In this document: positions 24,819-47,336 of the stretch, piece after piece
Numbering within the stretch: the stretch's first letter is position 1
Layout of the letters: every line of letters starts with the position of its first letter
Assembly (NCBI GenBank): GCA_943359485.1
Contig: CALRHR010000003.1
Span: 1-59,217, forward strand
DNA from: Candidatus Nomurabacteria bacterium
GTDB lineage: Bacteria > Patescibacteriota > Minisyncoccia > Phycocordibacterales > UBA9973
Direction: 5' to 3'
DNA length: 59,217 nucleotides
The notes under the pieces: generated by a model
Seen by the model: the letters and a program-made list of their open reading frames with translations, nothing else
What the model was told of the DNA's origin: nothing
Database searches by the model: none
Translations under genes and position numbers: made by a program

Positions 24819-24826
24819 AAATATTT

Positions 24827-24899: not shown

Positions 24900-25325
24900 T
24901 GTGTTCTGATGTTTATTTAAATCTAACACATCTAGACTCCAAGCCAAATCTCGTAATTTGTTTCCACCTAATCGTGCCGCATTTTGAAGCATTTGCGTTT
25001 GTTTACTTATTTCGGTAGTTTTTAGTGTATCTTCATTTGGCTCTTTTGTGCGTCTTTTCCATATATACAGTTTGCTCTGTAAAAGAAAATTAAATCCAGC
25101 AGCAACCATATTAATAAAAGGTTTATTATTTGGTCGGTAGAAAGTAAGAGCTAATGAAAATCCGGCGATAACCACAATCGGGATAGAGCCCCACATAATT
25201 CCGAGCAATCTATACAAAACAAAACACAAACCAGCCCCGCCGGCGAGGTAGACGAATTCTCTGAAGGTAAACGGACCAAAAATTTTGTCTTCTATGTCTA
25301 AAAATTGTGGAACTTTAAATTGCAT
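24891..25325 (-). CDS. PrgI-family (VirB3-like) T4SS membrane protein
   Basis: MQFKVPQFLDIEDKIFGPFTFREFVYLAGG.. followed by two TM segments, the classical PrgI N-terminus. The last codons and stop lie in repeat copy 3. Confidence 0.7.
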   Translation of the reverse strand: MQFKVPQFLDIEDKIFGPFTFREFVYLAGGAGLCFVLYRLLGIMWGSIPIVVIAGFSLALTFYRPNNKPFINMVAAGFNFLLQSKLYIWKRRTKEPNEDTLKTTEISKQTQMLQNAARLGGNKLRDLAWSLDVLDLNKHQNTGS

Positions 25326-25330
25326 AACGC

Positions 25331-25386
25331 AGGCTCTAGGCTTTAGGCGCTAGGCCCTAGTTGGACTAATTACTAGGTTCTAGCTG
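25331..25386. repeat. CTAGGC-type repeat (family C, copy 4)
   Basis: AGGCTCTAGGCTTTAGGCGCTAGGCCCTAG..ACTAATTACTAGGTTCTAGCTG. Confidence 0.7.
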
Positions 25387-25725
25387 TGAAATTAATTTAT
25401 TCAACATTTTCATAACTTCTTCCAGTATGGAATCTACTTTATTATAATCTAATTTTATTGTTTTGGGTAATTTTTTTACTATTACCAACTGGGTTTCTAT
25501 TTCAGCGCCAGATGCAAAAGCAATAAGCAAAAACCTTTTAAATTCAATATTTCCTCCACGCATTTTTCCTTCCGCTATATTTGAAGGTATGGATACCGTT
25601 GCTCTTCGGATTTGTGAAGTTAAACCGTAAATTTCTTCCCTAGGAAAATTACTTGTAAGTTCGTATATGGCAATCACTAGATCTATAGATTTTTGCCAAA
25701 TTGTTAAATCTTTATAAGTTTTCAT
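25366..25725 (-). CDS. four-helix-bundle protein (23S rRNA intervening-sequence protein family; Avd-like fold)
   Basis: MKTYKDLTIWQKSIDLV..IYELT..FP.EE.YGLTSQIRRA.VSIPSNIAEG.. is the hallmark of this family. Confidence 0.85.
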   Translation of the reverse strand: MKTYKDLTIWQKSIDLVIAIYELTSNFPREEIYGLTSQIRRATVSIPSNIAEGKMRGGNIEFKRFLLIAFASGAEIETQLVIVKKLPKTIKLDYNKVDSILEEVMKMLNKLISQLEPSN

Positions 25726-25730
25726 GATAT

Positions 25731-25817
25731 AGGATCTAGCTTTTTGAATTGCTAATGCCTAACGCCTAGTTGCCTGATTAATTACTGCTAAAGCCTAGAG
25801 CCTAACGCCTAGTGCCT
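25731..25817. repeat. CTAGGC-type repeat (family C, copy 5)
   Basis: ..TCTAGCTTTTTGAATTGCTAATGCCTAACGCCTAGTTGCCTGATTAATTACTGCTAAAGCCTAGAGCCTAACGCCTAGTGCC. Confidence 0.75.
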
Positions 25818-25824
25818 TCCCTCA

Positions 25825-26526
25825 CTACTCAGGTAGTTCTCGATAGGGGTCTATTTTGGGAACTTTGGGTGTTGTGGGTTGTGGGGTTGATGGTATGGCT
25901 GATTTTGATATATTTTCCAGGGTGTGCTCTGTTCTAACTGTTGGAGTTTGAATGGAACCAGATAACTTTTGTGCCAGTAATGAATGAATTTTTTCTGCAG
26001 GCTCTATTTTCCCCGCCTGCATTAGCTGTGCTGAAGGAACTACGGGCAGGTCCGGAACAGGTAATTTTTCATCTCTTATTATTTGTATACCTGCTTCTTG
26101 GAATGCTAAAGTATCATTTGTTTTTTCTTCTTCGGGTGTACTCTCTTCTTGGCTCAGTTGGGACGGAGTATTTTCTCTTTGCTGGAATGTTTTTTTTCTG
26201 TCGGTATTTTTAATCAACTCCTCTTTGATTTTTTTGAAAACTAAATTGTTCATTTCCACGACCAATTCATTTGCCGCCATTTTAGAAATCCCCATTCTTT
26301 TTTCTAATTCTTCCGGATAATCTCTCGTACTCAAAAGCCCACAGAGCAGTAACTCTGTTTCAATTTCCAGGTCTCCCAGCTGTTCGAAGGTGTAGCCCTT
26401 TTTTGTTCGCAATTCTAAAATTGATGCCTTCCAGTCCACTGTGGCAATGGCATTTTGCGTCTCTATCGGCAAAGCCGATTTTGCTTTTTCTATTTTTATT
26501 TGTAGTAAATCTATTGGGTCGTTCAT
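25825..26526 (-). CDS. hypothetical protein (paralogous N-terminal domain with 26600..27019)
   Basis: N-terminal ~95 aa align with the neighbouring ORF. C-terminal low-complexity Pro/Thr/Gln-rich tail. Confidence 0.45.
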   Translation of the reverse strand: MNDPIDLLQIKIEKAKSALPIETQNAIATVDWKASILELRTKKGYTFEQLGDLEIETELLLCGLLSTRDYPEELEKRMGISKMAANELVVEMNNLVFKKIKEELIKNTDRKKTFQQRENTPSQLSQEESTPEEEKTNDTLAFQEAGIQIIRDEKLPVPDLPVVPSAQLMQAGKIEPAEKIHSLLAQKLSGSIQTPTVRTEHTLENISKSAIPSTPQPTTPKVPKIDPYRELPE

Positions 26527-26530
26527 AATT

Positions 26531-26613
26531 TAGGCCTTAGGCCGCTAGGCTCTAGGCCTTAGCTTTTTTAATAATAACACAATTTTTCCCTACTAGTGCC
26601 TAAAGCCTAGAAC
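26531..26613. repeat. CTAGGC-type repeat (family C, copy 6)
   Basis: TAGGCCTTAGGCCGCTAGGCTCTAGGCCTTAGCTTTTTTAATAATAACAC..CTACTAGTGCCTAAAGCCTAGAACC. Confidence 0.75.
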
Positions 26614-27019
26614 CTGTGTCTACAAATGCTGAATAATCTCCACCAGAGAGGATGAAATCAAGATTTTGCTTTGGAGTTGTATTTCTGGTTGGCAGATTTT
26701 TTCTAATCTTTTCTTCTAGAAGGTTGCTCATTGGAGTGAATATTTTTTCCAATGCTTCGTTGGCTATCTTTTCTGCTTCAGCTTTGCTGGTGCCGACATT
26801 GTTTTCAATATTAGTTGCATAAAAATCGCCATCTTCAATTCCAACTAAAACTAATAGAGTTTCCACTTGCAGGTCGTTTGTCTCATTTTCATCAAGTAGA
26901 TATTTTTTACCAATTTTTTCGATAATCATTCCCCAATTCAAAGAATTTATCACCTCTTGTGCCTCTTTTGGCAGTTTCCCTACTTCGTCTTTAATTATTT
27001 GTTTTAATTTGTCTGTCAT
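26600..27019 (-). CDS. hypothetical protein (paralogue of the N-terminal domain of 25825..26526)
   Basis: Shared pattern: ..LP.E.Q..I....W...I..........E...L..ET.L.L.G....... The stop codon and last 4 residues lie in repeat copy 6. Confidence 0.45.
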   Translation of the reverse strand: MTDKLKQIIKDEVGKLPKEAQEVINSLNWGMIIEKIGKKYLLDENETNDLQVETLLVLVGIEDGDFYATNIENNVGTSKAEAEKIANEALEKIFTPMSNLLEEKIRKNLPTRNTTPKQNLDFILSGGDYSAFVDTGSRL

Positions 27020-27025
27020 AAATTT

Positions 27026-29362
27026 TTATGTTTTTGTTCCACTATCTAACTTTGTTTCTGATCTTATTTTTGCTGCTGCCTCTCTATCAGCCCTACTTCC
27101 TAAGTCTGCACCTGACCAAATACCAAGAGTAAGTCCACTTGTGATACTTTTTGTCCAGCGATTTCCCCTTGTTATCTTGTTTGCATAAGCTTGTTTTCTT
27201 TGCGCAGTTTCTGTTTTTATAGCCTGAACTTGCGATTTTTTCTGGTCTTCTAAAGCGTCAATACTTACCCCAGTTCCAGTTTCAATTCTAGTCATTCCAG
27301 TTGTTGGATCTGTTATCATATAATCTAATCCTTTATGGAAATCTTTTTTGTTTTGTTTTGCAAAATCTAACTCACCATTTGCTGTGATTAATGTTGCTCT
27401 TGCAGCTCCTTCTCCAGGAGTACCTTTGGCCGCATTCAGTTTGCTACTTGCATCATTTACTTCTTGTCTTTTCTTTTCAATTGTCTTATCAAGTGTTTCA
27501 ATCTTTTGAGCATTTTCCGCTAATAGTGCCTGCAAATCACCTTCTGTTTTATTCAATGCTTGCTTTAGCCTCTCATCTTCACCAACCTTGAGTTCATCCG
27601 CTCTCTTCATTCTTTTTTCTACTTTTTCTTTTCTCATTTTCGTCCATCCGCCTTCTTGTGTTTTGATAGCGCCTGCGCCACTAGCTAAGCCCGCTGCGCC
27701 CAAAAGCTTGCCAGCTCCCGGGATTGCGCGCGCATCATAACTCTTGCTTTGTAGATAATTTCCTGTTCTTTTAAGGCCGACTTTGTTTGCAAGCCCGCCC
27801 AGGCCTCCACCAATGACCGTCCTTCCAGCCAGTGCTGCTCCGCCTGTGGCTACGCCGAGCGCAAGACCTGCCGCAAGTCCACCAACTTTCATCACTGCCT
27901 CCCCCAATGCTCCGGAACTCTCTTTAGCAAAGCTGGTGGCTTTTATAAGCAGAATTAAAGTTATCATTGCTGGTATAACCAAAAGTAAAATAGTTTCCAT
28001 CCATCCTCGTTGCGTTACATCTCTGGCTGCCAGACTTCCGAGTGGGTCTGCTTTTATTACTAAAAATATAAAATACAAGAAAAACATAAAAATCGGCGCC
28101 ATAAAAGACACAGTGAGTAAGCGATGCGTCCATTCTTTCCAGCCTATGTATTTAACACCCTCCAGGATTGGTATTGTCAGAGACATAAAAGCGAAAGGAG
28201 AAAAAACAATTAAAACCCAAAGTTCAATTAACCTGCTTACAAAACTCAAACCAGCTATAAAAAAGGCATAAGAAGCAAAAGCCATAATTACACCGGTAAC
28301 GAATATTATTCCAAGCAGTAGGGGAATCGGGACTGCGGGGTCGCTTGAACTTAAAAAATAAGCTCCCAAGCCGGCAAGCGCTCCGAGACCCGCCCCAACC
28401 CCGGGTATTGGGATAAAGTTTCCTATTAATGCCCCGGTTCCTACATAACCAGCAAGATTGGTGCCACTAAATTCAGTATTTTTCTCTTGGATGGTTTTAA
28501 AAAATTTTTCAGATAGCAATCTGCTTGGGTCAAAACCACTTACCAATGCCGCAGACAAACCCTTGTCTTCCACGGTTTTCGCCAAGTCGAGCACAGGGAT
28601 ATGGTTTCTGTCTAATGGCTTTCCATCTTTTTTTACGGTCACATCGATTTTGTTATAAAAAATTAAAGCTAGGACATTTGAAGTGTCGATAACTACTTTG
28701 GTAAAGAACATGGAGAAGTTTATAAGTAATGCCATGATTATGACATGGGCGATCATTTTTTTTGTTTCACCTCCGAGACCTAAAATTAATCTAATTGCAA
28801 TATATAGAAGAACGAGAATAAAAAAAAGATTTGAAAGATCTCGGACAATTTCCCAAAGCTTTCCTATGAATTCGCCAGTCAAAAGAGCGCTACTTAATCC
28901 CAAAGCCACCACAATATCAAAGAACCTTGCCGTGATGACAAGTACAAATGAAGTCAGTGTGTAGAAAATATAATAAAAAAGAAGCACTAAGCATCCACCC
29001 ACACTTCCAGATATAATTTTTCCGCAAGCCTTTTCAACTGCTTGCTGGAGCGGTGAGCCGGAGGTTGCCTCTGCCTCTGCCGCCTTATTTGCCGCCGCTT
29101 GTTCTACTGGACCGAGGATTCGTGCTGATGGAGTTGTTGCACCAGCTGGTATCCATTCCGCATTAGCATTAAGACCACATTGTTCTTGTGGGGTATTTTC
29201 TTGGCCCGGTGTGTATGCAATAATATCTCCCTTTTTGTTAAAAGCTCCATCTGCTTTATGACGACAAGTTCCACTCGGACTTTGTGCTTGTGCTTCCCTC
29301 CCCGCGCCCAAAAATCCGACGAGGATGATGACTATTAGTATGTATGGCAAAAATTTTCGCAT
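27026..29362 (-). CDS. polytopic membrane protein, VirB6/TrbL-like T4SS channel candidate, with C-terminal coiled coil
   Basis: Signal peptide, at least 8 predicted TM segments, Gly/Ala-rich segments, and a charged coiled-coil tail. It sits in an operon with VirB4 and PrgI. Confidence 0.5.
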   Translation of the reverse strand: MRKFLPYILIVIILVGFLGAGREAQAQSPSGTCRHKADGAFNKKGDIIAYTPGQENTPQEQCGLNANAEWIPAGATTPSARILGPVEQAAANKAAEAEATSGSPLQQAVEKACGKIISGSVGGCLVLLFYYIFYTLTSFVLVITARFFDIVVALGLSSALLTGEFIGKLWEIVRDLSNLFFILVLLYIAIRLILGLGGETKKMIAHVIIMALLINFSMFFTKVVIDTSNVLALIFYNKIDVTVKKDGKPLDRNHIPVLDLAKTVEDKGLSAALVSGFDPSRLLSEKFFKTIQEKNTEFSGTNLAGYVGTGALIGNFIPIPGVGAGLGALAGLGAYFLSSSDPAVPIPLLLGIIFVTGVIMAFASYAFFIAGLSFVSRLIELWVLIVFSPFAFMSLTIPILEGVKYIGWKEWTHRLLTVSFMAPIFMFFLYFIFLVIKADPLGSLAARDVTQRGWMETILLLVIPAMITLILLIKATSFAKESSGALGEAVMKVGGLAAGLALGVATGGAALAGRTVIGGGLGGLANKVGLKRTGNYLQSKSYDARAIPGAGKLLGAAGLASGAGAIKTQEGGWTKMRKEKVEKRMKRADELKVGEDERLKQALNKTEGDLQALLAENAQKIETLDKTIEKKRQEVNDASSKLNAAKGTPGEGAARATLITANGELDFAKQNKKDFHKGLDYMITDPTTGMTRIETGTGVSIDALEDQKKSQVQAIKTETAQRKQAYANKITRGNRWTKSITSGLTLGIWSGADLGSRADREAAAKIRSETKLDSGTKT

Positions 29363-29368
29363 AATGTT

Positions 29369-32191
29369 TTATGGTTGCGGATTGGGTTCGGATTGTGGCA
29401 GTGGCTCATTTGGAACCCAATCTCCTCCCACGGTATTACATTCGTCTTTTGTTATTCCCGATTCTTCCGGAAATACAAATCCCGTAGATCTATCAGGGAC
29501 ATTACTGCAAGTACCTAAATCAGAACCAATGGTATCATTCGGCAAAATATAATCGTTTCCTATCTGGGTTGTCCCGGGCAGGTTCCCCTTGTAGTCTAGG
29601 ACATTTGCTTTCCATATAATATTGCAACTCAATTCTATATCAACAGTATAATTACCAAAGATGCCACCCCAGCGCCTCCACTTCAAGACATCGTTTGCAT
29701 TTACATATGGAACTTCCGGATGGGTTATAGGATTCCCACTTGAACCAGAAAGTGCTCCTGCGACACCTCCAACAACTACACTAATACCGCCAGTAGCAAC
29801 AGCCCCAGCGCCTCCAAGAATTGCACCCAAAATTCCACGCCCAGGATCATCGTTTTTGTGGTCAAAAGTTTCATGATTATATCCTCCTTTAATGGGCGCA
29901 TCGCAATAAATTTCCTTCTCCGTATTTCCAATGGTGGTGCTGCCAGTTCTTGCTGTGAGGGTAGAAAATGGTCCGCCTTGCGTACTCCAGCCTTTTACTG
30001 GCCTTTCTGCATTACATTGTGTCGTCAGTGAAATTAACTTAGCTAATTTTTCTTTGGCGATAAACAAGTCATTTTGTATTTCATTTACAGTATTACTATT
30101 AGAGACTCCAATTTTGTTTGCATTATATTGTTTTCTTAACGAAATTAAAGTTTTTTCATTTCCAGAGTCTGAAGGTGGTTGGATGATTTTCCCTGCTGAA
30201 TCAAATGTAGAAATAGCGTTCAAGCCCGCATTAATTGCTTGTAGCCTTACCAGTGCTTGAGCCCTTGTTCGTCTTCTGTCTGTCAACTCGTCTGACTGTT
30301 GCGCCAGCTTCCCTATTTCATCTACGGCATCCATATAGATCGCTGAATTTGGAAGTTCGGTCATCATGTTATTAATTATCCAATCTTTTAGAAATTTTAC
30401 AGCAAAGTTTAATTCTTTAAGAGCCAGGTCAGCTTGAGCCGACTTATTTCCATCACTATCACTTTGTTTTCCTTGAAGTTTTTGGCTGTTTCTATTCATT
30501 TCATTCATCAATCTTTCTTGCCATCCCAAGTCTGGACCTGGTTGACAGATGTCGAGCAGTCTGGCTTGTGGCCAGATCTTTCCTAGCATTTGTGTTAGGC
30601 CCGGGCTACATGCATTGTTTACTGTTACTCCACCATTCTGTGTATTTATAACAGGGTTACATGTGACTGGATTATCTATTAACCAAATTTCTGCTTCTGT
30701 ATTTTTTATGTCACCGGGGATGTATTGAGCTCCTGGTGGGCAATCCCAATTTTTCAGAATTTGGTTATAAATACAGTTTCGGCTGTTGCCCGTTTCTTCG
30801 GTAACTGTCGTTATTTCTCCTGTTTCATCTCCTGTAGTTTTTGTGGTGATAATGGTTCTTCCTTCTAATTGTTTTTTGAATTCACTCAACACAACTTCTT
30901 CATCTGGACCCATATTCCAAGCATCATTGGTGCCATCACCTGGACCGCCAAGTTTTTGCCCCTCGTACTCCCATTCATCTACAGAGGGTCTTGGATTTAC
31001 TTTAGTTGCGAGAGCACTTAAACCATCTCCTATAAACTTATTTAACAAAGCATCTACAATGGCTGATATGCTGGTACCTACTGCCATGGCTAATTCACTT
31101 TGTCTATAACTTGAACTAAGAGCGGTCATAATCTGGTTACCGACTACTGAGCCTGGGGTTGTAACTTTCAATCCACCTGGACAGGTATTACTTTCTGCCC
31201 AGTCAGATTTTTCTTTATCAAAATCTTGGTCATATTTAGTATCGTAGGCTTCTCGAGCTTGGATAGAGGCTTGAGATTCTCTTTGTCTTTCAAGATTTTC
31301 AATTACTTCTTCATTTTCTCCAGTTGTAGGATTATATCTATAAGTAGTACTCTGCTCGGTATATGTTTCATATTGTATATCTGGTGGATCATAAACCGAA
31401 TTATTATGAAAAGTTGGCTTTTGGAATTCGTTTTTGCCGTTGTTATAGCTAGGATTTGTTGGGCAAGTTTTGGGTGATAAAAATCCCAAACCCTGCTGGA
31501 GTGTATCTTTTACTTGATTTGCTTTGCTAACTAGCGTACCGTCGAGTCGATTGGCTAGTTCTTCTGTTGCTAGCATTCTGTAACCCAAGTAATTATTTTG
31601 TGGATACTGAGTGTTGATTAAAAATCCATTCCATCCACCGATGTCAAAGTCAGTCTGGAAGCGGTAGAGCAACTGTGGGTCTCTGATAGCCTTACTCAGT
31701 GTATACTGCGCGTTGTCGCTAAATTGTCTTTTGTATGCGCCTATTGTGCTTAGAGCAAAGGCTTTTCCAAATGGAAACTTGCTATTGTCATAGCCGGTCA
31801 TATCTACAAAATCCTTGATCTGGAATTTGGCGATGTCTTTAAAAAAAGAACTGGGGTTTTGTACGAAAAGTGGAGAGCCATGAAAACCGGAATTTATCCA
31901 GTTTATAGTGCTTGTGGTCATTTTCTGCAAAAATCTTTTAGCAACAGTCATGACTATTTGTTTTAAAACTTCTTGGGCAACATTTTTTATTGAAATTGAA
32001 GTGGAAGTTACTGTTGACGCTGTGTTTGTTCCAAGTAAAACTGTTCTGATAAAACCATTAGGTCCTAAATCAAAAACCGGCCAGGCTGCTTGTGTCTGTT
32101 TTGGTGTAGAAAATAAAACAGTGGGTACTATTATTGCAACAATGAGAAGAGAGGAGATTAATTTTGTAATTTTATTGTTTTTAGCTAGCAT
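29369..32191 (-). CDS. large membrane-anchored extracellular hypothetical protein (940 aa)
   Basis: N-terminal TM/signal anchor, many paired Cys residues, and a C-terminal Gly-rich hydrophobic segment GILGAILGGAGAVATGGISVVVGGVAGAL. No enzyme motif recognised. Confidence 0.5.
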   Translation of the reverse strand: MLAKNNKITKLISSLLIVAIIVPTVLFSTPKQTQAAWPVFDLGPNGFIRTVLLGTNTASTVTSTSISIKNVAQEVLKQIVMTVAKRFLQKMTTSTINWINSGFHGSPLFVQNPSSFFKDIAKFQIKDFVDMTGYDNSKFPFGKAFALSTIGAYKRQFSDNAQYTLSKAIRDPQLLYRFQTDFDIGGWNGFLINTQYPQNNYLGYRMLATEELANRLDGTLVSKANQVKDTLQQGLGFLSPKTCPTNPSYNNGKNEFQKPTFHNNSVYDPPDIQYETYTEQSTTYRYNPTTGENEEVIENLERQRESQASIQAREAYDTKYDQDFDKEKSDWAESNTCPGGLKVTTPGSVVGNQIMTALSSSYRQSELAMAVGTSISAIVDALLNKFIGDGLSALATKVNPRPSVDEWEYEGQKLGGPGDGTNDAWNMGPDEEVVLSEFKKQLEGRTIITTKTTGDETGEITTVTEETGNSRNCIYNQILKNWDCPPGAQYIPGDIKNTEAEIWLIDNPVTCNPVINTQNGGVTVNNACSPGLTQMLGKIWPQARLLDICQPGPDLGWQERLMNEMNRNSQKLQGKQSDSDGNKSAQADLALKELNFAVKFLKDWIINNMMTELPNSAIYMDAVDEIGKLAQQSDELTDRRRTRAQALVRLQAINAGLNAISTFDSAGKIIQPPSDSGNEKTLISLRKQYNANKIGVSNSNTVNEIQNDLFIAKEKLAKLISLTTQCNAERPVKGWSTQGGPFSTLTARTGSTTIGNTEKEIYCDAPIKGGYNHETFDHKNDDPGRGILGAILGGAGAVATGGISVVVGGVAGALSGSSGNPITHPEVPYVNANDVLKWRRWGGIFGNYTVDIELSCNIIWKANVLDYKGNLPGTTQIGNDYILPNDTIGSDLGTCSNVPDRSTGFVFPEESGITKDECNTVGGDWVPNEPLPQSEPNPQP

Positions 32192-32216
32192 TTATTTATA
32201 TTATATAGATTCTTAC

Positions 32217-33134
32217 TTAATTATTCAATTTTTGTTGTATCGTAATCAAAAGACTGTCGATAGATGACTCCAGGGTGTCAGTATTTGGCGCATATTGAGC
32301 TATTGCGCTTAAGGCGACAATGGTGTCGCTCTCATATAGCCTTATGTCGCTTATGTTTTCTAGTATCTTTTCTAAGATGTTTACTACAGCTAAGTGTTGC
32401 GTAGAGAGGGATTTTGGTACGGGAATCTTTACCATAGCAGTTACTGTATCTCTCATATTTTCTACAATGAGGTCAAGTTTTGATAAGACATTGACATCAA
32501 CATTGTCTTCATCAATAAAAAATTCTTGCAAGACATCAATAACTGTATAATTTGCTGGATTTTTTATTTTAATATTCTTTAACGCATTATTGTAAGTTGT
32601 GATAGTTTGTTTGCTATTATCATCTAGTATTTTCAATTCGGAGAGTAAAAATACTTTTCTAGTAGGGGTGTTCTTTATATGTTCTGCTAATGATTCTCCT
32701 AATTTATTTATTGTAGCTTGGTCCATTTCTCCGGCTTGGTTTAGGGTGGCGACAGTAGAAAAGAATTCTCTGGAAAATTTATCTGTTTCTGTTAGTGTTT
32801 CTGTTTCTCCTGTGCTCGTATTTCCTTCTCCGCCCAAACTCATCTCTTGTGCAGATTTTAACTTTGCTATTTCGACACTGTCAGAAGTTCCATCATCATT
32901 TGTGTCTTTCTTTAATGGGTCTGTGCCCCACAAGGTTTCTTCCCAGTCCAATACTCCATCTCCATCTGTATCTTTTATTATTATATTCTCCAGTGTTTCG
33001 TTGCCGTAAGCTAAACCTTCTTGACTAAGTTGGTTCTGTGGATTTTGAAACACTGTTTTGTTCTTTAAGAAAAAAAGAACAACAAGAAAAACTATCGCGC
33101 AGGCGAGTAAGAGCACTACTTTTTTATGTTGCAA
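32217..33134 (-). CDS. membrane-anchored hypothetical protein with thrombospondin type 3-like Ca-binding repeats
   Basis: N-terminal TM segment. DTDGDGVLDWEETLWGTDPLKKDTNDDGTSD matches the DxDxDG calcium-binding repeat pattern. Confidence 0.5.
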   Translation of the reverse strand: MQHKKVVLLLACAIVFLVVLFFLKNKTVFQNPQNQLSQEGLAYGNETLENIIIKDTDGDGVLDWEETLWGTDPLKKDTNDDGTSDSVEIAKLKSAQEMSLGGEGNTSTGETETLTETDKFSREFFSTVATLNQAGEMDQATINKLGESLAEHIKNTPTRKVFLLSELKILDDNSKQTITTYNNALKNIKIKNPANYTVIDVLQEFFIDEDNVDVNVLSKLDLIVENMRDTVTAMVKIPVPKSLSTQHLAVVNILEKILENISDIRLYESDTIVALSAIAQYAPNTDTLESSIDSLLITIQQKLNN

Positions 33135-37736: not shown

Positions 37737-40667
37737 TTAAGGCTTTATTTGAAAACCAAAATCCTCATTTAATTCTTTTATAATCTCTGGAGGCATTGGA
37801 AGTCTCTTCCCCTTTATACCATCTTCAGTAAAGTTCTCTGATGTTCCATCCTGGTATATTATTTTTCTTTTTGGTTTTCCCTCTGGGTAATAAGAAGTCC
37901 ATTCTTTTTTTCCTTCACTGTCAGTAGTTTCTATAAATCCTCCAGCTCGGAAAACTTTTCCTAGTCTTTCTTCCTCCGTCATTTTTGTTTCTAATTTGGC
38001 TTTTGCCTCTGTTTGAGGTTTTGTGGTGGGTGTTGTTGGTTGTATTCGTGGTGGACGTGGTGGAATCGTTGATGCTTCTGATGAAGCTCTTTGTTCTGGC
38101 TGGGGTGGTGGGGTAGGTTCTTGTGACATAGGTGGCTCTGCGGGGCTCTCTGTTTTTGGTATTGGTGAGGGTTTTGGGACTTCGATTGGTCCCGCTTCAC
38201 CTCTGGATAAATCAGGTGCTGATTTTTTATTTTTTGCTTTAGGATTTATCCTGCCGGCTGGTTCTTCTATTTTTTCTTTATTCAAATTTCTTGGTTCACC
38301 TGATTTTTTACCAAGATAACTAACTCCAGCCAGACCCCCCAGAATTCCAAGTCCAGCCAATATTGCAGTTCGCATTCTATTTTTCCCCCTATCAAAGAAT
38401 CCTGGTTTGCGAGGTGGAACGACACGACGAATTGGTTTAGGTTTTTCCCGTGGTGTGGGTGGGGTAAATGATGCAAGGGGTTGGGATGGTGGTGTACCTA
38501 CCGTTGTTTCATTATAAAATTTCTTTGCATAGACAAGGCCATTTTCTAGTTGAATACTTCCATCCGGATATGTAGTATCAACACCAGTGTGTCTTATGGC
38601 ATCACCAGATTTAATTAATTCTTCAATTATTTTAATACAATATAATGTATATTTTCCAGGTATAAGTTCTGTGTTACTTAAACCAAATGTATATTTTCCA
38701 GGTATACGTTTTACGCTAATTAAATCATCTGAAAATACATACTTACCATTAAAATCATAAAAAATATCATCACCTTCCCCAAAACAACCCGCGAAATCTC
38801 CTGGAATTATATGTTGTGTAAAATTAGCTGTTATTAATCTTGCTTTTTCTATATCTTCCTCCGTCGGCTCGGCGTTAGGATCAGCTCGGTGTTGGCGCTT
38901 TTGATCAGGAGTGAGTGTCGCGGGATGTCGGTCACCTTTGATTTTGTCATAATATTTTTTAGTATAAATACCATTCTGCTCAATTACAGGTTTCTGATTT
39001 TTGTCTAAAAAGCTATTAGGCGCTTGCACTAGAAACCCTTCTCTAAGCAAAACCCCAATAATTTTTTGAATGTAGGGCTTTTTTGTGTTATTATCTTCCC
39101 ATTCAAGATAATTTAAAATTGAATAGATACTAATAGGAAAAATTTCTCTTTCGAAGTTAGCCAAACCATCTTTAACTGTTTGGATATCCTCTGGCGTCGG
39201 CTCGCCTGCCAAATCTCGTACTTCTTCTGCTGGCTTTTTTACACCAGCTGGCTGTGCTGGGGGTGCAGTGGGTTCGGGCTGGGCCATAGCGGTTCTTGGT
39301 TGTTGCTCTGCTTCAATTTCTATATCATCAGGTTTTGGTTCAAAAGATGGGACTTTAACAGTATAAGGAGGTTTATCCATATTAATTACATAATCATTAC
39401 TATTAGTTACACCACCACTATTTGTTTGTGAAAAATTAGGACGTCTTGCTATATAACCATTATTGAATAGGAAAATTCTCAAAGCTTCTTTAAAACTAAC
39501 TGGAAAAAGGTCTGGTATAGGTTGTTTATCTCTGTCCACAAGAGTGTCTTTTGTATATAAAAAATCATCAAAAAAACTAAATACATTTTGTAATTCGTTG
39601 GGTATTTTGCCGGGCGTATCACCTCTTTCTTCCCTCGTTACAACAACAGCCCGTAGTAATTCTAAAAAGAAATTAGCAATTTCAATAAAATTTTGATTAA
39701 TTTCTACATTTTCTATATCTGAATATACAGGCTTACCATTATCAGTATATCTTGAAATAAGATTTTGCTTAAACACAAAAATCTTGGATTTTATGCTTTT
39801 ACATTTTTCACTTGCAATTAATTCATCAAAATCCGCCGGCTTGGCATCAGGATCAGCTCGGCGCTTTCGATCAAGAGTGGGTGTCGCGGGAGGTTGGTCA
39901 CCTTCTGATCCTGCACTAGCTGGGGCTGGGTCTGAAGTTGCCGCTGGTTGAGGTGGCTGTTTAGGTGTTTCAATAACAAATTCAGTATTTAAATTTTTTA
40001 AAGTTGAAACTAAACGATCTAAAAGACTACTACGATTATTTTCTAAAAGATTAGAACAAAGTAAAATAGTACTATTGCTACCAATAGTACCAAATGATGT
40101 TTCTAATATATTTGTAGCAGCAGCAAAATTTTTGATAAAAATTTCGAAACTAGATATCATTTTTCTAACTTCCTTTCTTTCTGTTTCTGGCAAAACTGAC
40201 CTACCCTGACTCTGAAAACATAATGATTCCAGTTCCCTCGTAATCCTTTGAATAAGTCCTTCGAATTCCTTAAATGTTTCGTAATTACGATATATAAGTG
40301 GCTGTCTATCAAAAGAAGCTATCTCTCTACTGGGCTCATAAAGTGGGCGCATATTATCAATGCTCGGTAAGTTGCTCAGAGCTTCTTGAAGAGAATTTAT
40401 TTCAGAATCATGATATTCGATTTTGATGACCACTTTTTCTTGTTGCCTTCTAGCTTCCACCTCTTCTGCAGCTCTATGGGCTCTAGCTGTTTCTTCTGCC
40501 TTAGCCCTAGCACGAGCTACTTCTTCCGCCGCCTCCTGGGTTCTTTGTTGTCTAAATCTTTCCGCTTCTGCTTCGGCCTTAGTACGGGCTTCTTCAGTTG
40601 TCTTCTTTTTTCCTTCCATGATACTTGTATTATATATTTTTTTAATATTTAACTCTAATTTCTCCAA
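37737..40667 (-). CDS. large modular hypothetical protein (976 aa) with coiled coil, three repeated modules, one TM segment and Pro-rich tail
   Basis: N-terminal Ala/Glu/Arg coiled coil and repeated linkers (RADPDAKPADFDELI / RADPNAEPTEEDIEK / GEPTPEDIQT). TM segment RTAILAGLGILGGLAGVSYLG and a Pro-rich C-terminus. Confidence 0.5.
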   Translation of the reverse strand: MEKLELNIKKIYNTSIMEGKKKTTEEARTKAEAEAERFRQQRTQEAAEEVARARAKAEETARAHRAAEEVEARRQQEKVVIKIEYHDSEINSLQEALSNLPSIDNMRPLYEPSREIASFDRQPLIYRNYETFKEFEGLIQRITRELESLCFQSQGRSVLPETERKEVRKMISSFEIFIKNFAAATNILETSFGTIGSNSTILLCSNLLENNRSSLLDRLVSTLKNLNTEFVIETPKQPPQPAATSDPAPASAGSEGDQPPATPTLDRKRRADPDAKPADFDELIASEKCKSIKSKIFVFKQNLISRYTDNGKPVYSDIENVEINQNFIEIANFFLELLRAVVVTREERGDTPGKIPNELQNVFSFFDDFLYTKDTLVDRDKQPIPDLFPVSFKEALRIFLFNNGYIARRPNFSQTNSGGVTNSNDYVINMDKPPYTVKVPSFEPKPDDIEIEAEQQPRTAMAQPEPTAPPAQPAGVKKPAEEVRDLAGEPTPEDIQTVKDGLANFEREIFPISIYSILNYLEWEDNNTKKPYIQKIIGVLLREGFLVQAPNSFLDKNQKPVIEQNGIYTKKYYDKIKGDRHPATLTPDQKRQHRADPNAEPTEEDIEKARLITANFTQHIIPGDFAGCFGEGDDIFYDFNGKYVFSDDLISVKRIPGKYTFGLSNTELIPGKYTLYCIKIIEELIKSGDAIRHTGVDTTYPDGSIQLENGLVYAKKFYNETTVGTPPSQPLASFTPPTPREKPKPIRRVVPPRKPGFFDRGKNRMRTAILAGLGILGGLAGVSYLGKKSGEPRNLNKEKIEEPAGRINPKAKNKKSAPDLSRGEAGPIEVPKPSPIPKTESPAEPPMSQEPTPPPQPEQRASSEASTIPPRPPRIQPTTPTTKPQTEAKAKLETKMTEEERLGKVFRAGGFIETTDSEGKKEWTSYYPEGKPKRKIIYQDGTSENFTEDGIKGKRLPMPPEIIKELNEDFGFQIKP

Positions 40668-42479: not shown

Positions 42480-42905
42480 TTATAAAATAATATCACTGAC
42501 CACTTTTACTCTCGCTTTCCTTTCTTTTAAACTTAAGTAAACAACTAGTAAATCCACTTGCCACTCCACAGCATCAAGTTTTTTCGCTAAAATATAAGTT
42601 TGAATAACTCGGGATAACCTTTTAAGCTTTTGAGTGTGCATATTGTCTTCAGGTCTGTGCTCGTATCTTTCATCGTTATCGTCATAAGATTTTGGCATGA
42701 AAATATTTAATGTTTCACGGGAAACAGACTTAACTTCAACGAAATACAGTTTATTCTTTTTTTGAGCTACGATGTCTATCTCGCCCCATTTTTTAGTGTA
42801 ATTGCGGTCTAATATTTTAAAGTCATGTTTCATGAGAAACTTTACAGCTATATTTTCACCAATTTCTCCGGTCTTTTGAGTGTCAGATGTAAATATTTTC
42901 GGCAT
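42480..42905 (-). CDS. yraN: YraN-family (UPF0102) endonuclease
   Basis: GEIGENIAVKFLMKHDFKILDRNYTKKWGEIDIVAQKKNKLYFVEVKS.. matches the YraN core. An internal insertion follows VEVKS. Confidence 0.8.
   Translation of the reverse strand: MPKIFTSDTQKTGEIGENIAVKFLMKHDFKILDRNYTKKWGEIDIVAQKKNKLYFVEVKSVSRETLNIFMPKSYDDNDERYEHRPEDNMHTQKLKRLSRVIQTYILAKKLDAVEWQVDLLVVYLSLKERKARVKVVSDIIL
42711..42726. promoter_or_regulatory. parS-like site (TGTTTCACGGGAAACA) inside yraN
   Basis: One mismatch from the palindromic ParB-binding consensus TGTTTCACGTGAAACA. Confidence 0.55.
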
Positions 42906-42913
42906 ATTTTGGT

Positions 42914-42945
42914 TGTTTCACGAGAAACATGTTTCATGTGAAACA
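42914..42945. promoter_or_regulatory. two abutting parS-like sites (TGTTTCACGAGAAACA + TGTTTCATGTGAAACA)
   Basis: Each 16-mer has one mismatch from TGTTTCACGTGAAACA. The pair is intergenic and directly adjacent. Confidence 0.6.
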
Positions 42946-43040
42946 AAAAAGGTAATTTTTATGTCTTTTGCTAATTTAGTTCTATTTTTTAACATATTTT
43001 CGATAAAATTTTTTGTAAAAGACAGTTTTTAATATGTCCG

Positions 43041-43069
43041 TTATACACATATCAACAGACTTATCCACA
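43041..43069. promoter_or_regulatory. pair of DnaA boxes (TTATACACA, TTATCCACA) in an AT-rich intergenic region
   Basis: Perfect TTATCCACA at 43061-43069 and a one-mismatch box at 43041-43049, same orientation, 20-bp phasing. Confidence 0.45.
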
Positions 43070-43135
43070 GTTTTTAACTAAATCTGCATATAAAACAAAA
43101 GAAAAAATAAAAATATAAAGGACAAATATTTTCTG

Positions 43136-43206
43136 TGCGGCCATGGAGAATCGAACTCCAATTTCATCCTTGGCAAGGACGTGTTTTACCACTAAACTAT
43201 GACCGC
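43136..43206 (-). tRNA. tRNA-Gly (anticodon GCC)
   Basis: Minus strand reads GCGGTCATAGTTTAGTGGTAAAACACGTCCTTGCCAAGGATGAAATTGGAGTTCGATTCTCCATGGCCGCA. Loop TTGCCAA. No encoded CCA. Confidence 0.9.
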
Positions 43207-43335
43207 AATTTTAAAAAATCTTCTAAATTATAGTATTTTATATAAACTAATGCAACCACAAAATAATCTTATAAAACAAGTATTTTTTGTCTTTTTTTAA
43301 AATAGTGTATAATATTAATATTAATAAATAATTTT

Positions 43336-43407
43336 GCGCCTGTAGCTCAACGGATAGAGTACTCGTCTTCGGAACGAGTGATGTGGGTTCAATTCCTGCC
43401 GGGCGCA
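43336..43407 (+). tRNA. tRNA-Arg (anticodon UCG)
   Basis: GCGCCTGTAGCTCAACGGATAGAGTACTCGTCTTCGGAACGAGTGATGTGGGTTCAATTCCTGCCGGGCGCA. Loop CTTCGGA. No encoded CCA. Confidence 0.85.
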
Positions 43408-43417
43408 CAAAAGTTTC

Positions 43418-45085
43418 ATGGAAAACTATAAAAACTTAATACAAAAAGTCCCCAAAGAAGTTTCACATGTAACACAAACTCTAGAGAAAGGAGGTTTTGA
43501 GGCATACCTGGTTGGTGGATGTGTCCGTGATTTAGTTATCGGTAGGGATCCCAAAGATTGGGATGTTACAACTAATGCCAAGCCAGAAGAAATAATCAGT
43601 CTGTTCGAAAAGACTGTTTATGAGAATACTTTTGGAACAGTCGCGGTTTGTGTCCCTCACCTATCCGTCAAAGCGTTAGCGTCGAAGGATGAAACAGTTT
43701 CACAAGAAACATTCGAAAACAATGTTTCCCGTGAAACACAAGAATATATTGTGGTTGAAGTAACCCCTTACAGGTTAGAAGCAAAATATACTGATTTTAG
43801 ACATCCAGATGGTGTAAAATTCAGCAATAACTTGGAAGATGATTTAAAAAGACGCGATTTTACAGTGAATGCTCTGGCGCTGAATTCTCAAGGACACCTA
43901 ATTGATTTGTTTGGTGGGGTAAAAGATATAAAGGACAAAATGCTACGGACAGTAGGGGAGCCTTATGATCGTTTTAGTGAAGATGCGCTGCGAATGTTGA
44001 GAGTAGTGCGTTTTGCTTGCCAACTTAGCTTTTTTATGTCGCATGAAACTACTGAGAGTATTCTGAAAAACTCGGATTTGATAAAACAAATTTCAGCAGA
44101 AAGGATTCATGATGAGTTTGCGAAAATAATTATGTCGAAAACTCCGGCGAGCGGGGTTGCGATGCTTCAAAAGTTTGGTTTGTTAAAACATATAATTCCT
44201 GAGTTAGAAGAGGGGATAGGTTGTGAGCAACTTGGGGAGCATATTTATGATGTTTGGGACCACTTATTACATGCCCTGCAACACGTGGCGGACAAAAATT
44301 GGCCTTTAGAAATAAGGCTTGCAGCTCTTTTTCATGATATTGGGAAGCCAAAGACAAGAAGGCTGGCTACTCCACACAAATTAGCCTCGCCTGAGAACTT
44401 TTCCTCAGGATTTCCTGCTATGCAACGTCAACCATTCGGAAAAGTTTCAGGCTCGACCATAGCGACTCCAAAGAAAAAATACACCTTCTACGGCCATGAA
44501 GTTGTGGGTGCGAGGATGGTGAAAAAAATAATGGAACGATTAAAGTTTCCCAAAAAAGAAATTGAACTTGTTGAAAAATTGGTTCGTAATCATATGTTTT
44601 TTTCAGATACTGAACTTATCACTCTTTCTGCCGTGCGGCGCATAATTCAGAAAGTGGGGGTGGAAAATATTTGGCTTCTAATGAATGTCCGTGAGTGCGA
44701 CAGGGTGGGGATGAAGAAAAAAGAAGCGCCGTATCGATTGCGAAAATATTTTGCTATGATCGAAGAAGCCTTGCGGGATCCGATTTCCGTCAGTCAGTTA
44801 AAAATAAATGGGGAATTTATGATGAAAGAATTGGGGATCAAACCAGGGCCGAGGATGGGATGGATGCTAAATGCGCTTCTCGAAGAAGTATTGGATGCAC
44901 CGGAGAAAAATACCGTGGAACATCTCTCTGAACTTGTTAAATCACTCAACAGGCTCGATGACGGAGAGCTGAAAGCACTTGGCGACAGGGGAAAAGAAAA
45001 AAAAGAAGAACTTGAAGAAGAAGAGGTTGCGAAACTTCACGAGAAGCATGGAGTGCGCCCCGCCAAGGATGGGGTAAAAAAGTAG
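43418..45085 (+). CDS. cca: CCA-adding tRNA nucleotidyltransferase with HD domain
   Basis: GGCVRDLVIGRDPKDWDVTT head domain, RRDFTVNA, and HD motif LFHDIGKP. Two apparent in-frame insertions plus an acidic/basic C-terminal tail. Confidence 0.85.
   Translation: MENYKNLIQKVPKEVSHVTQTLEKGGFEAYLVGGCVRDLVIGRDPKDWDVTTNAKPEEIISLFEKTVYENTFGTVAVCVPHLSVKALASKDETVSQETFENNVSRETQEYIVVEVTPYRLEAKYTDFRHPDGVKFSNNLEDDLKRRDFTVNALALNSQGHLIDLFGGVKDIKDKMLRTVGEPYDRFSEDALRMLRVVRFACQLSFFMSHETTESILKNSDLIKQISAERIHDEFAKIIMSKTPASGVAMLQKFGLLKHIIPELEEGIGCEQLGEHIYDVWDHLLHALQHVADKNWPLEIRLAALFHDIGKPKTRRLATPHKLASPENFSSGFPAMQRQPFGKVSGSTIATPKKKYTFYGHEVVGARMVKKIMERLKFPKKEIELVEKLVRNHMFFSDTELITLSAVRRIIQKVGVENIWLLMNVRECDRVGMKKKEAPYRLRKYFAMIEEALRDPISVSQLKINGEFMMKELGIKPGPRMGWMLNALLEEVLDAPEKNTVEHLSELVKSLNRLDDGELKALGDRGKEKKEELEEEEVAKLHEKHGVRPAKDGVKK
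43723..43738. promoter_or_regulatory. parS-like site (TGTTTCCCGTGAAACA) inside cca
   Basis: One mismatch from the consensus. A weaker neighbour, AGTTTCACAAGAAACA, lies at 43696-43711. Confidence 0.55.
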
Positions 45086-45121: not shown

Positions 45122-45394
45122 ATGGATACAACAATGTTAATAAAAACAAATAAGGTTCTAAAAACTAAAGCTCAAAAATTAGCCAAAGAAATGGGTTTGC
45201 CTTTAGGTACTTTAGTTAACAACTATCTCAAGGATTTTGTCATTGAGAGGCAGGTTACTTTTAACGCTCCCCTCATACCGAATAAAGAAACCATAAGAGC
45301 AATAGAACAGGCAAGAAGGGACTATAAAGCAGGCAGAAATATTTCTGGTCCATTTACGGCAAAGGAGTTTATTACTCACTTAAAAAGCTTGTAG
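45122..45394 (+). CDS. type II antitoxin, RelB/DinJ family
   Basis: N-terminal ribbon-helix-helix-like segment MLIKTNKVLKTKAQKLAKEMGLPLGTLVNNYL, located 4 nt upstream of the toxin gene. Confidence 0.65.
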   Translation: MDTTMLIKTNKVLKTKAQKLAKEMGLPLGTLVNNYLKDFVIERQVTFNAPLIPNKETIRAIEQARRDYKAGRNISGPFTAKEFITHLKSL

Positions 45395-45398
45395 TCTC

Positions 45399-45656
45399 AT
45401 GCAATATTTTTCCTCCAAAAGGTTTAACAAACAGTTTGCCAAACTCCCGGGAAAAATTAGAGAGCAATGCATTGAGAAAATAAAATTTTTTTTAGAAAAT
45501 CCTTTTGACCAGAGATTAAATAATCATGCAGTTTACCACCCCTATGATGGTTGCCGGAGTATAAATGTTACCGGGGACATTCGAGCTATCTATGAACCAG
45601 GAGAAGATGTAGCTCTCTTTATCTGCATTGGTTCTCACAGTGAGCTGTATAAATAG
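45399..45656 (+). CDS. type II toxin, RelE/YafQ-family mRNA interferase
   Basis: 85 aa. ..FNKQFAKLP..I.....I..F..NP.....NH......G.RS..V.GDIRAIY......V.L...GSHSELY pattern. Confidence 0.7.
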   Translation: MQYFSSKRFNKQFAKLPGKIREQCIEKIKFFLENPFDQRLNNHAVYHPYDGCRSINVTGDIRAIYEPGEDVALFICIGSHSELYK

Positions 45657-47336
45657 CTACGAAACCTCTTGCTGGTAACATTTTTCACAGTAGACCATTT
45701 CTTTGCGATCTGGAGAATAAGATGTTTCAAATTCGTTTGGGCATTTGGTGTCAGCGTGTTGGTGATTTTTTAATTTACACATACAGGAACGGTGCCAGAG
45801 CTGGCGGGGGTTGCGTTTAGACATTCGGTCTTGATGGCGGCACTCGAAATCCTTGTGGGGTAGTGGCAGATTCATTCGTTTGTAGAAATCTAATTCGGAT
45901 TTTGTGATACGAAAATTTTTCTTACAATCCTTACAGATTAAAATTTCGTTTAAAATTTCCTCACCAATTTCTTCGATAGTCTCTGGTATATTCTCTTCTT
46001 TAATTGTTTCTTTGTCGTATGTGCCAGTGGCCTGGTTTTGCCAGTTAAAACCTTTTTCCTTAGCTTCTTGCTCAGTCATCGGTAAATATTCTTGAGCCAG
46101 AGTTTCATTGTATCCAAAAGGGGAGAATGTTGGTGGGAAAAATTCTCCATAGGTTTTTTCTTCTAACATTTGTTTCTGGATTTGTTCTTTTAGTTTTTGA
46201 TATTCTTCTTTAGAATATTCTTTATTTAGAATCATATAGTTTCCTTTGCGTATGGCTATACAGCCAAAAGCATTGGAAAGATTGTGACAATTTTCAGAAT
46301 AAGCTACTTCATTGCAGTAGAAAATATAAGCACAGTTATGGGATTTACTACATTGGAGAGCACCCATAATATTGTAACAAAGCTCATTTTTATAATAAAA
46401 ATTATTACAGTCCATACTGTCGATTGATTCTTCGGCATCTGCTAGATAAGAGCAATTTTTTGTGCCGGTGGTGTCAAAAACTCTCACTCCATCGTAGCAA
46501 TTGTGTAAATAATCTCCGGTGACATTGTTGCATTTTGTCGCGGATGCATACTTCACTATTGTGGTACTTTTCAAAGCAGCAAATTCTTTTTTAGCTGCTT
46601 CTATGTTTTCATAACTGGAAAAAATTTCTTTTTTCTTTTTCTCATATTCTTCCTTTGAGTATTTTACATTCAAAATTGCGTTAGAAAGGTTCCTGCCATT
46701 TACACAAAAAATGCAGTTGGTAGAGTTTCGCATGTTGTAGCAGAAAATCAAATCAGTCGATGACTGGCATTGTTCGCAGTACATGCATTTAAAGCATTCG
46801 CGAGTGTCTATACACTCATAGCAGAGTTCAGATTGGTGAATGAAAGCGCAGTCCACGCATCCTTTGCATTTTTGAATCAGCCTACTATACATACAGTCCT
46901 CGTTGTATTCTGCGGCAAAAATTAAATAACAATCTTTATTGTCTGATGCGCCGTTGGTATATTCACTGCGTACAGAATTCAACATCATTAAGGCTAGTCG
47001 GGGGACTTTCTTTTGTAACTCCGAATATTGTTCTAAAAATGATTGATTTGGATTGTAATCTTTTCCGAAATCTTTTGGGTCCCATTTGTCACTCCACCAA
47101 CATTCGTGACAATAAATAGTGTAAGGACTTTTATTTGAATAAAGAGAAATGATGTCTTTTTTGCAAAGATCACAAGCTCTTTTATAGAAAGTTCTTTCAT
47201 TTCTAAATGCCAATCTGCGCATTGCGCGACAGTCTGGACAATGAGAAGGAGGAATAGTTTTTACTTGTTCGTAAAAAATCAAGTCCTCCTTTCTAATTTC
47301 AAAATCTTTTTTACATGTTTTGCAATTTTTTTGCAT
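45657..47336 (-). CDS. cysteine-rich hypothetical protein with terminal zinc-ribbon modules and an internally duplicated Cys-repeat core
   Basis: N-terminal CKTCKKDFEIRKEDLIFYE..CPDCR and C-terminal CKDCKKNFRITKSELDFYKR.. are homologous. Two Cys-rich blocks each end in N.ILN..YSKEEY.K.K. Confidence 0.5.
   Translation of the reverse strand: MQKNCKTCKKDFEIRKEDLIFYEQVKTIPPSHCPDCRAMRRLAFRNERTFYKRACDLCKKDIISLYSNKSPYTIYCHECWWSDKWDPKDFGKDYNPNQSFLEQYSELQKKVPRLALMMLNSVRSEYTNGASDNKDCYLIFAAEYNEDCMYSRLIQKCKGCVDCAFIHQSELCYECIDTRECFKCMYCEQCQSSTDLIFCYNMRNSTNCIFCVNGRNLSNAILNVKYSKEEYEKKKKEIFSSYENIEAAKKEFAALKSTTIVKYASATKCNNVTGDYLHNCYDGVRVFDTTGTKNCSYLADAEESIDSMDCNNFYYKNELCYNIMGALQCSKSHNCAYIFYCNEVAYSENCHNLSNAFGCIAIRKGNYMILNKEYSKEEYQKLKEQIQKQMLEEKTYGEFFPPTFSPFGYNETLAQEYLPMTEQEAKEKGFNWQNQATGTYDKETIKEENIPETIEEIGEEILNEILICKDCKKNFRITKSELDFYKRMNLPLPHKDFECRHQDRMSKRNPRQLWHRSCMCKLKNHQHADTKCPNEFETSYSPDRKEMVYCEKCYQQEVS

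Follow-up and report, generated by a model that had tools for sequence, protein, structure and literature searches.

A probable chromosomal centromere of seven parS-like sites across yraN, a tRNA pair and cca in a Nomurabacteria-type bacterium

Introduction

What is the function of a group of 16-bp palindromes that resemble parS, the binding site of the partition protein ParB, and that are written partly between and partly inside two housekeeping genes? This question is raised by a 59-kb stretch of metagenomic DNA from lake water (hereafter the window), which is part of the 150-kb contig ERZ27280328 k141_1883310, also contained in the metagenome-assembled genome (MAG) GCA_965045245.1. The nearest homologues of its CCA-adding enzyme (~75% identity) are labelled Candidatus Nomurabacteria, Paceibacterota or Minisyncoccia, and because of these names the host is considered a member of the candidate phyla radiation. 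The seven parS-like sites extend across the yraN gene, a tRNA pair and the cca gene, and the locus is probably the chromosomal centromere of this Nomurabacteria-type bacterium, that is, a cluster near the origin at which ParB would nucleate.

The mechanism proposed for this locus follows the ParABS model (PMC7053999, PMC8367383, PMC8494293, PMC7022226). Dimers of a canonical ParB/Spo0J CTPase would dock on the 16-bp palindromes with their helix-turn-helix domain; then, having bound CTP, they would form closed clamps that slide to the adjacent DNA. The resulting partition complex would be used by ParA and/or the SMC condensin to organise and segregate the origin region, and the presence of several adjacent parS sites would raise the rate at which ParB is loaded.

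Seven parS-like sites in one kilobase

The window was scanned for matches to the palindrome TGTTTCACGTGAAACA, with 100 shuffles as control. At up to two mismatches there are four matches against 0.04 expected, a number that none of the 100 shuffles reached, and at up to three mismatches there are seven against 0.25 expected, all of them between 42711 and 43738 (1,028 bp). These figures rule out a chance origin of the cluster. Four of the matches are 15/16 (42711, 42914, 42930 and 43723) and three are 13/16 (42826, 43459 and 43696). A weight matrix built from the sites of relatives only, leaving out those of the window, assigns 18–27 bits to the seven sites, 8.5 bits to the next best position of the window (43412) and at most 8.1 bits to the rest. 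Moreover, the matrix gives nothing above 10 bits in the contig flanks (8 kb to the left and 9 kb to the right), and the parS-like sites are confined to one 1-kb segment among the about 77 kb of contig DNA scanned.

Two of the sites are located in yraN (42480–42905, minus strand), which encodes a UPF0102 protein with a nuclease-like fold (Pfam PF02021, E = 4e-17). The site TGTTTCACGGGAAACA (42711..42726; 15/16, 25.3 bits) encodes V-S-R-E-T on the minus strand within VEVKSVSRETLNIF, and the weaker TGTTTCATGAGAAACT (42826..42841; 13/16, 19.8 bits) is read in a second frame as K-F-L-M-K-H. The intergenic site TGTTTCACGAGAAACA (42914..42929; 15/16), 9 bp upstream of the yraN start codon, has the maximum score of the window (26.6 bits) and is directly abutted by TGTTTCATGTGAAACA (42930..42945; 15/16, 25.4 bits), which lies 131 bp from a perfect DnaA box. 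The remaining three sites are carried by cca (43418–45085, plus strand), which encodes a CCA-adding enzyme with an HD domain (Pfam PF01743, PF12627, PF01966 and PF13735). The first of them, AGTTTCACATGTAACA (43459..43474; 13/16, 18.1 bits), encodes the family-invariant peptide KEVSHVT, while AGTTTCACAAGAAACA (43696..43711; 13/16, 20.3 bits) and TGTTTCCCGTGAAACA (43723..43738; 15/16, 25.1 bits) encode V-S-Q-E-T and V-S-R-E-T, respectively, in one and the same hypervariable loop of the CCA head domain. These two sites are 27 bp apart, which is the commonest inter-site spacing among relatives. A very weak and doubtful 16-mer that overlaps the cca start codon, AGTTTCATGGAAAACT (43412..43427), scores 8.5 bits, near the best background, and is not counted.

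An earlier note on this DNA, made from the letters alone, had reported the four one-mismatch 16-mers with the coordinates and sequences given here, together with weaker copies at 43459 and 43696, which are real and carry three mismatches each. These six sites stand; the seventh, at 42826, had been overlooked and brings the real total to seven. The placement that it gave (two abutting intergenic sites near yraN, one site in yraN and the rest in cca) agrees with the coordinates of the open reading frames (ORFs), and the VSRET-type peptides that it mentioned are read from the coding sites as KSVSRETLN, ETVSQETF and NNVSRETQ, next to KEVSHVT at 43459. It had also asked how the density compares with the background of the whole genome; within the about 77 kb of contig scanned with the weight matrix, no comparable sites lie outside the cluster.

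Conservation of the cluster in relatives

The cca locus with 10 kb on either side was compared in 80 species-representative genomes of relatives with 60–78% CCA identity. All loci with enough sequence retain the order tRNA(s)–yraN–tRNA pair–cca, with yraN as the left neighbour of the cluster, upstream in every such relative, and cca as its conserved right-hand neighbour. In these loci, 206 of the 208 sites with at most two mismatches lie in the interval from -1500 to +800 relative to the cca start, which adds up to 167.6 kb, and only two in the remaining 1,134 kb, a density difference of about 700-fold. The cluster is therefore not a product of chance, because the sites of the relatives are almost all located in the yraN–tRNA–cca segment at the syntenic position. 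In 51 of the 63 loci that hold the whole segment, one site or more has at most one mismatch, and there are usually two to four sites per locus.

The sites fall into three classes, the counts of which take in the window's own locus. Class 1 comprises 66 sites within 120 bp upstream of yraN, which are often 16/16 and produce the cleanest, near-perfect logo. Class 2 consists of 52 sites inside yraN at two fixed codon positions: counterparts of the 42711 site (about yraN codon 59–69) were found in 31 relatives, and those of the 42826 site (codon 21, xFLVKHG) in 21. Class 3 contains 88 sites inside cca in one shared reading frame; the position of the 43459 site is a 15/16 match in a more distant relative with 63% CCA identity (L076). 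The logo of the 210 family sites is the parS consensus, with the core GTTTCA..TGAAAC conserved at 85–100%. Neighbouring sites in relatives are most often 27 bp apart, i.e., nine codons, a spacing that fits small tandem units.

Constraint on the DNA and on the protein

The sites are written into surface loops of YraN and of the CCA-adding enzyme, mostly as V-x-x-E-T codon modules, which raises the question of whether the DNA or the peptide is maintained. Between FGTVGVCVP and IIEVTPYR, the aligned CCA enzymes carry a hypervariable insert whose sole recurring feature is one to three V-x-x-E-T units. Codon usage was counted in 150 V..ET motifs of this loop and compared with the rest of the gene. 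Valine is encoded by GTT in 95% of the motifs (33% elsewhere), glutamate by GAA in 100% (68%) and threonine by ACA in 77% (40%), and arginine is encoded by CGT in 83% and never by AGA or AGG (AGR), as opposed to 20% CGT and 48% AGR in the background. The two middle residues vary freely (S/P/T/I, then R/H/Q/Y/C), always keeping NCA-YRT. Moreover, yraN carries the motif in two frames, as KSVSRETL and as xFLVKHG. Because of this codon bias, the two frames in yraN and the fact that the best logo belongs to the intergenic copies, the constraint is placed at the level of the DNA: the nucleotide palindrome is the constrained object and the encoded peptides are its by-product. Selection on the protein for VSRET was considered and is ruled out by the codon usage and by the existence of intergenic copies. 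A further hypervariable insert of the CCA-adding enzyme, 0–70 residues long, lies in its HD domain between HDIGKP and KKKYTFYGHE (44360-44480, residues ~316-352), and no parS is present in it.

The DnaA-box module and the position of the origin

The spacer of 229 bp that separates yraN from the tRNA pair contains, in addition to the two abutting parS sites, three direct DnaA-box-like 9-mers on the plus strand with a period of ~10.5 bp (43041..43069), namely TTATACACA (43041), ATATCAACA (43049, two mismatches) and the perfect box TTATCCACA (43061). The family consensus of this trio is TTATAAACA-T-TACCAACA-TAG-TTATCCACA. A perfect TTATCCACA box is found in 58 of 68 relatives, in plus orientation in 60 of 61, and in most relatives it is located 131–133 bp from the yraN-proximal parS, with a 33-fold enrichment over the flanks. 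Alignments of 30–55 spacers reveal a conserved AT-rich block between parS and the boxes (42946..43040), and AT-rich conserved sequence is present on both sides of the trio. The block contains the inverted-repeat arms TGTCTTTT (42962–42969) and AAAAGACA (43017–43024), as well as TTTACA-17-TATGTT (43019–42991, minus strand), a promoter-like element directed towards yraN that is a consensus match only, no better than in shuffled sequence. A second inverted-repeat pair, TGTCCTTTAT/ATAAAGGACA (TGTCCKTTAT/ATAAAGGACA), occupies 43035-43044/43115-43124, and the promoter-like block and the trio of boxes are enclosed by the two pairs. The arms hardly vary among relatives; protein sites, DNA or RNA hairpins and the tRNA 3' flank are candidates for what they represent.

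Since the strongest sites lie upstream of yraN at a fixed distance from DnaA boxes, the putative centromere appears to abut an origin-type or DnaA-controlled element, and segregation and initiation may be physically linked, as the fixed spacing suggests. The DnaA-box module is described here as a conserved partner of the probable centromere, short of a proven oriC.

The strand composition of the relatives also changes at this spacer. Raw GC skew is higher in the right flank than in the left in 47 of 47 loci, the means of 500-bp bins change sign exactly at the spacer, and the cumulative minimum per locus has a median position of +100 bp. In a regression on third-codon positions (GC3), the effect of the side is +0.087±0.006, i.e., 14 standard errors, independent of gene strand. 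Without yraN and cca, the left flank has a mean GC3 skew of only -0.055, with values below zero in 31 of 43 loci. In the genome of the window itself, the cumulative GC3 curve reaches its lowest point at dnaN/dnaA (~13.9 kb) and shows just a local dip at 42 kb. The spacers dnaA-dnaN and dnaA-rpmH hold DnaA boxes and AT-rich DNA as well. A DnaA-trio or an unwinding element was not recognised. In the dnaA–rpmH spacer (16635-16720), two tandem DnaA boxes precede direct repeats that are short and richer in GC (AGGCGCTAG; GCCTAAAGCCTAG / GCTTAATGCCTAC). The yraN–cca spacer resembles an origin or part of one, but a definite assignment of oriC to it was not adopted, as the window's own GC3 profile points to dnaA/dnaN.

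In the window, dnaN-dnaA (13907–16557) lies to the left of the cluster, with dnaA itself at 15211–16557. The distance between dnaA and the cluster is 26.2 kb, close to the ~27 kb given in the earlier note, which had undersold the context: a DnaA-box trio adjoins the cluster, and dnaN, dnaA and yraN are found alongside it in L076. In this relative (6078-9971), dnaN-dnaA-yraN are contiguous, co-oriented and directly against the parS/DnaA-box spacer, whereas the remaining 79 species have dnaA at a distance of more than 10 kb from the locus. This suggests that the dnaA-linked arrangement of L076 is ancestral and was split later.

The search for a reader protein

ParB is the presumed reader of the cluster, on the grounds of site identity and conservation, and several points weigh against the centromere interpretation. 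ParB binding, spreading and segregation at this locus are all carried over from what is known of ParABS systems, and three sites of the seven carry three mismatches and may bind weakly or not at all. Also, no ParA or ParB was found in the about 77 kb of contig DNA by Pfam scans of essentially all ORFs of the window (at low stringency for unannotated ones) and of the contig flanks; tblastn found none in the window either, which agrees with the earlier note on the absence of parA and parB there. Neither protein was detected by tblastn with Bacillus subtilis Spo0J and Soj within ±10 kb of the cluster in the 80 relatives (1.47 Mb), and 20 ParBs from candidate phyla radiation bacteria, used as tblastn queries, likewise found nothing at the window or at the loci of the relatives. 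Finally, none of the ParBs found could be linked to Nomurabacteria or to this MAG; the Patescibacteria in which ParB was detected belong to other orders or classes.

A two-motif DNA pattern (GERRxRA…ENxQR) was used to draw 120 ParB loci from metagenomes, and the Spo0J query works, since it recovered ParB in 120 of these 120 loci; it also found ParB in 3 of 12 viral loci. Three of the 120 metagenomic loci (L169, L218 and L272) are from Patescibacteria. Canonical ParB, with the domains ParB_N (PF02195), HTH_ParB (PF17762) and ParB_C (PF23552), is thus present in this phylum, and the relatives of these proteins are named Falkow-, Kuenen-, Kerfeld- and Moranbacteria and Parcubacteria group. A ParB of the family was sought by a representative search, a cluster look-up and a Moranbacteria-type profile search, all matches of which were in other orders, and two context look-ups provided no link of ParB to Nomurabacteria. 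Three loci were considered as the family ParB and rejected: L167 and L206 are in fact from a Gram-negative bacterium and a Lactobacillales-type bacterium, respectively, and L245 does not look like candidate phyla radiation.

The same parS scan on the 120 ParB loci identified a perfect parS beside parAB in 21, some of them in dense clusters, as exemplified by a metagenomic bacterium with six parS in 1.3 kb beside parAB (L204). Four Patescibacteria ParB loci (L169, L218, L272 and L279) have no parS in the fetched flanks; L204, L260, L192 and L278 were the loci with which they were compared. This is compatible with parS lying elsewhere in those genomes, and parS may commonly be unlinked from parAB in Patescibacteria. 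Two side observations were made at these loci. In L218:1139-4718, 3.5 kb downstream of the Patescibacteria parB, there is almost no ORF of at least 80 amino acids and no Rfam match. In L245:374-7201, from a low-GC metagenomic bacterium unrelated to the host, rsmG-parA-parB is located 3.3 kb from cca and a perfect parS is present in rsmG, a cca–par neighbourhood that is probably a coincidence.

Gene neighbourhood

The local gene order is tRNA-Gly(tcc) on the minus strand, tRNA-Pro (plus), yraN (minus), the 229-bp spacer, tRNA-Gly(gcc) (minus), tRNA-Arg(tcg) (plus) and cca (plus). The divergent tRNA pair (43135–43408) consists of tRNA-Gly(gcc) at 43135–43206 and tRNA-Arg(tcg) at 43336–43408, with the DnaA boxes on one side and cca on the other. 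It is present in all relatives in two mirror forms (Gly- Arg+ or Arg- Gly+) with roughly equal species numbers, and therefore a small segment has undergone one or possibly several inversions; between relatives, strand and order also differ for tRNA-Pro and tRNA-Gly(tcc). A structured RNA or terminator as explanation of the locus was ruled out, since the four tRNAs are the only Rfam matches and no terminator-like hairpin was found.

On the other side of dnaA the classic rpmH-rnpA-yidD-yidC-jag set is found, and between dnaA and the parS cluster lie a type-IV-secretion-like cluster, ksgA and uvrD/pcrA. The type-IV-secretion-like cluster (18769-33134, minus strand; VirB4/TraG P-loop, PrgI and T4SS pilin) would be head-on to replication if the origin were at dnaA, and its coding strand is markedly C-rich at third codon positions; it may be an island or point to an earlier rearrangement in the region from dnaA to the parS locus. 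A gene on the minus strand (37737-40667) encodes a protein of 976 amino acids that matches no Pfam family; the protein has extended low-complexity stretches rich in Pro/Glu/Lys/Ala and a membrane anchor region at the C-terminus, and its gene adds to the local negative GC3 skew just left of the cluster. To the right of cca, a toxin–antitoxin pair (RelB-like/ParE-YafQ-like, 45122-45656) precedes a Cys-rich gene and occupies the same place in only 2 of the 80 relatives (L030 and L037). The Cys-rich gene (45657-47336, minus strand) encodes 559 amino acids rich in CxxC pairs with no Pfam family, is the right neighbour of cca in most relatives, and is present in tandem copies in some loci (L010 and L011).

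Discussion

The centromere-like role proposed in the earlier note has fared well and is the probable one for this locus: the motif is canonical, confined to one 1-kb segment, syntenic in about 80 species, under selection at the nucleotide level, and origin-proximal. Three other explanations have to be weighed, which jointly retain a minor share of the probability. The palindromes could be part of a replication origin or DnaA-linked control region and be read by an origin-associated factor, their main role being the control of initiation. The conserved DnaA-box trio, with its fixed orientation and its distance of 131–133 bp from parS, the AT-rich conserved sequence on both its sides, the family-wide change of GC-skew sign at the spacer with a median cumulative minimum at +100 bp, and the dnaA gene next door in L076 all speak for such a role. 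However, the global GC3 minimum of the window is at dnaN/dnaA (~13.9 kb) rather than at the local dip at 42 kb, dnaA has box-plus-AT-rich regions of its own, and the negative GC3 skew of the left flank is weak once yraN and cca are left out. Moreover, the motif is the ParB site, and we know of no other origin factor that reads it. An origin role of this kind is unlikely, and it overlaps with the centromere interpretation if the reader is ParB.

That the 16-mers are operators of an ordinary transcription factor, e.g., the conserved TrmB-like regulator, controlling yraN, the tRNA pair or cca, is quite improbable. The two best sites do lie between the promoter-like element and the yraN start codon, and a TrmB-family gene and the gene of the Cys-rich protein are conserved neighbours, but operators do not normally recur over 1 kb within both flanking genes, in arrays whose period is 27 bp. 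In addition, the sequence is the exact ParB consensus, including G2/C15 in 97–98% of the sites, and the promoter match is no better than that in shuffled sequence. A very improbable explanation is that the sites are relics, ParB having been lost, and that they persist by inertia or because the VSRET-like peptides matter to the proteins. The lack of a ParB tied to the family and the invariance of KEVSHVT at the protein level in CCA would fit this view. Against it, species at 60–78% CCA identity still keep sites with at most one mismatch, the intergenic copies are the best conserved, and synonymous positions are constrained, the two central codons being free to encode different amino acids. Decay would be expected of neutral relics, and the relic explanation is weakened for this reason. 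The function as a centromere is therefore retained as the probable one.

Beyond this, a family-wide composite unit is proposed only tentatively. It may consist of parS placed 131–133 bp from a phased DnaA-box trio at the skew switch, unlinked from parAB and mostly from dnaA, with extra parS added as 27-bp 'VSRET' units in dispensable loops of both flanking housekeeping proteins. If true, this would be a multi-site centromere without intergenic space in a gene-dense, sub-megabase genome.

How chromosomes are segregated in the candidate phyla radiation has hardly been studied. A literature search in a searchable library found no paper on parS or ParB in these bacteria, and one candidate preprint was set aside because it dealt with the genes of the host and not with those of the epibiont. 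The locus described here offers a precise, testable centromere candidate for a family very abundant in freshwater and groundwater, in which the universal parS code would hold. Furthermore, it would represent a natural example of a DNA-binding site that shapes proteins, the loop modules of YraN and CCA existing because of the site. In practical terms, the cluster can be used as a landmark to orient and close MAGs of the Nomurabacteria group.

Comparison with known systems

The chromosomal parS consensus is mainly TGTTNCACGTGAAACA (PMC7022226). As in B. subtilis (Spo0J) and most other bacteria, the sites described here are the same 16-bp palindrome, origin-proximal, present in several copies and partly located in coding sequence. 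B. subtilis differs in that its ten parS are spread over the origin domain, while here all detectable sites are in 1 kb, parAB is not nearby and the system is known from sequence. The B. subtilis parS inside spo0J is read in the same frame, as V-P-R-E-T. A related 16-bp palindrome, the Noc-binding site (NBS) of Firmicutes, is read by a ParB paralogue, and two of the window sites have the NBS-like C7 or G10 in one half-site. However, NBS (ATTTCCCGGGAAAT core) have A2/T15 together with C7/G10 and occur dispersed along the chromosome outside the terminus region, whereas 97% of the 210 family sites have G2 and 98% have C15, and the family sites are concentrated at one locus. The assignment to NBS is ruled out by the retention of G2/C15, the restriction of C7/G10 to single half-sites and the single location.

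In Caulobacter crescentus, Corynebacterium glutamicum and similar species, clustered origin-proximal parS form a single ParB nucleation zone (PMC5815017, PMC7083940). The locus is like these in having several parS clustered at one origin-proximal position. It differs from them in that their clusters adjoin or surround parAB, whereas here no par gene is present in 77 kb or within ±10 kb in the 80 relatives, and in that the sites are largely inside two unrelated housekeeping genes. ParB sites beside DnaA or initiator sites are known from parS2-B of Vibrio cholerae ori2 and from the crosstalk between Soj/Spo0J and DnaA in B. subtilis. The position of parS beside DnaA boxes is a likeness to these systems and suggests a coupling of segregation and initiation, which unlike in those systems is read here solely from the fixed parS–DnaA-box spacing of 131–133 bp. 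In all, a chromosomal parS centromere is of a known and fairly ordinary kind; the lineage, the separation from parAB and the embedding beside a DnaA-box module are what take this locus beyond routine.

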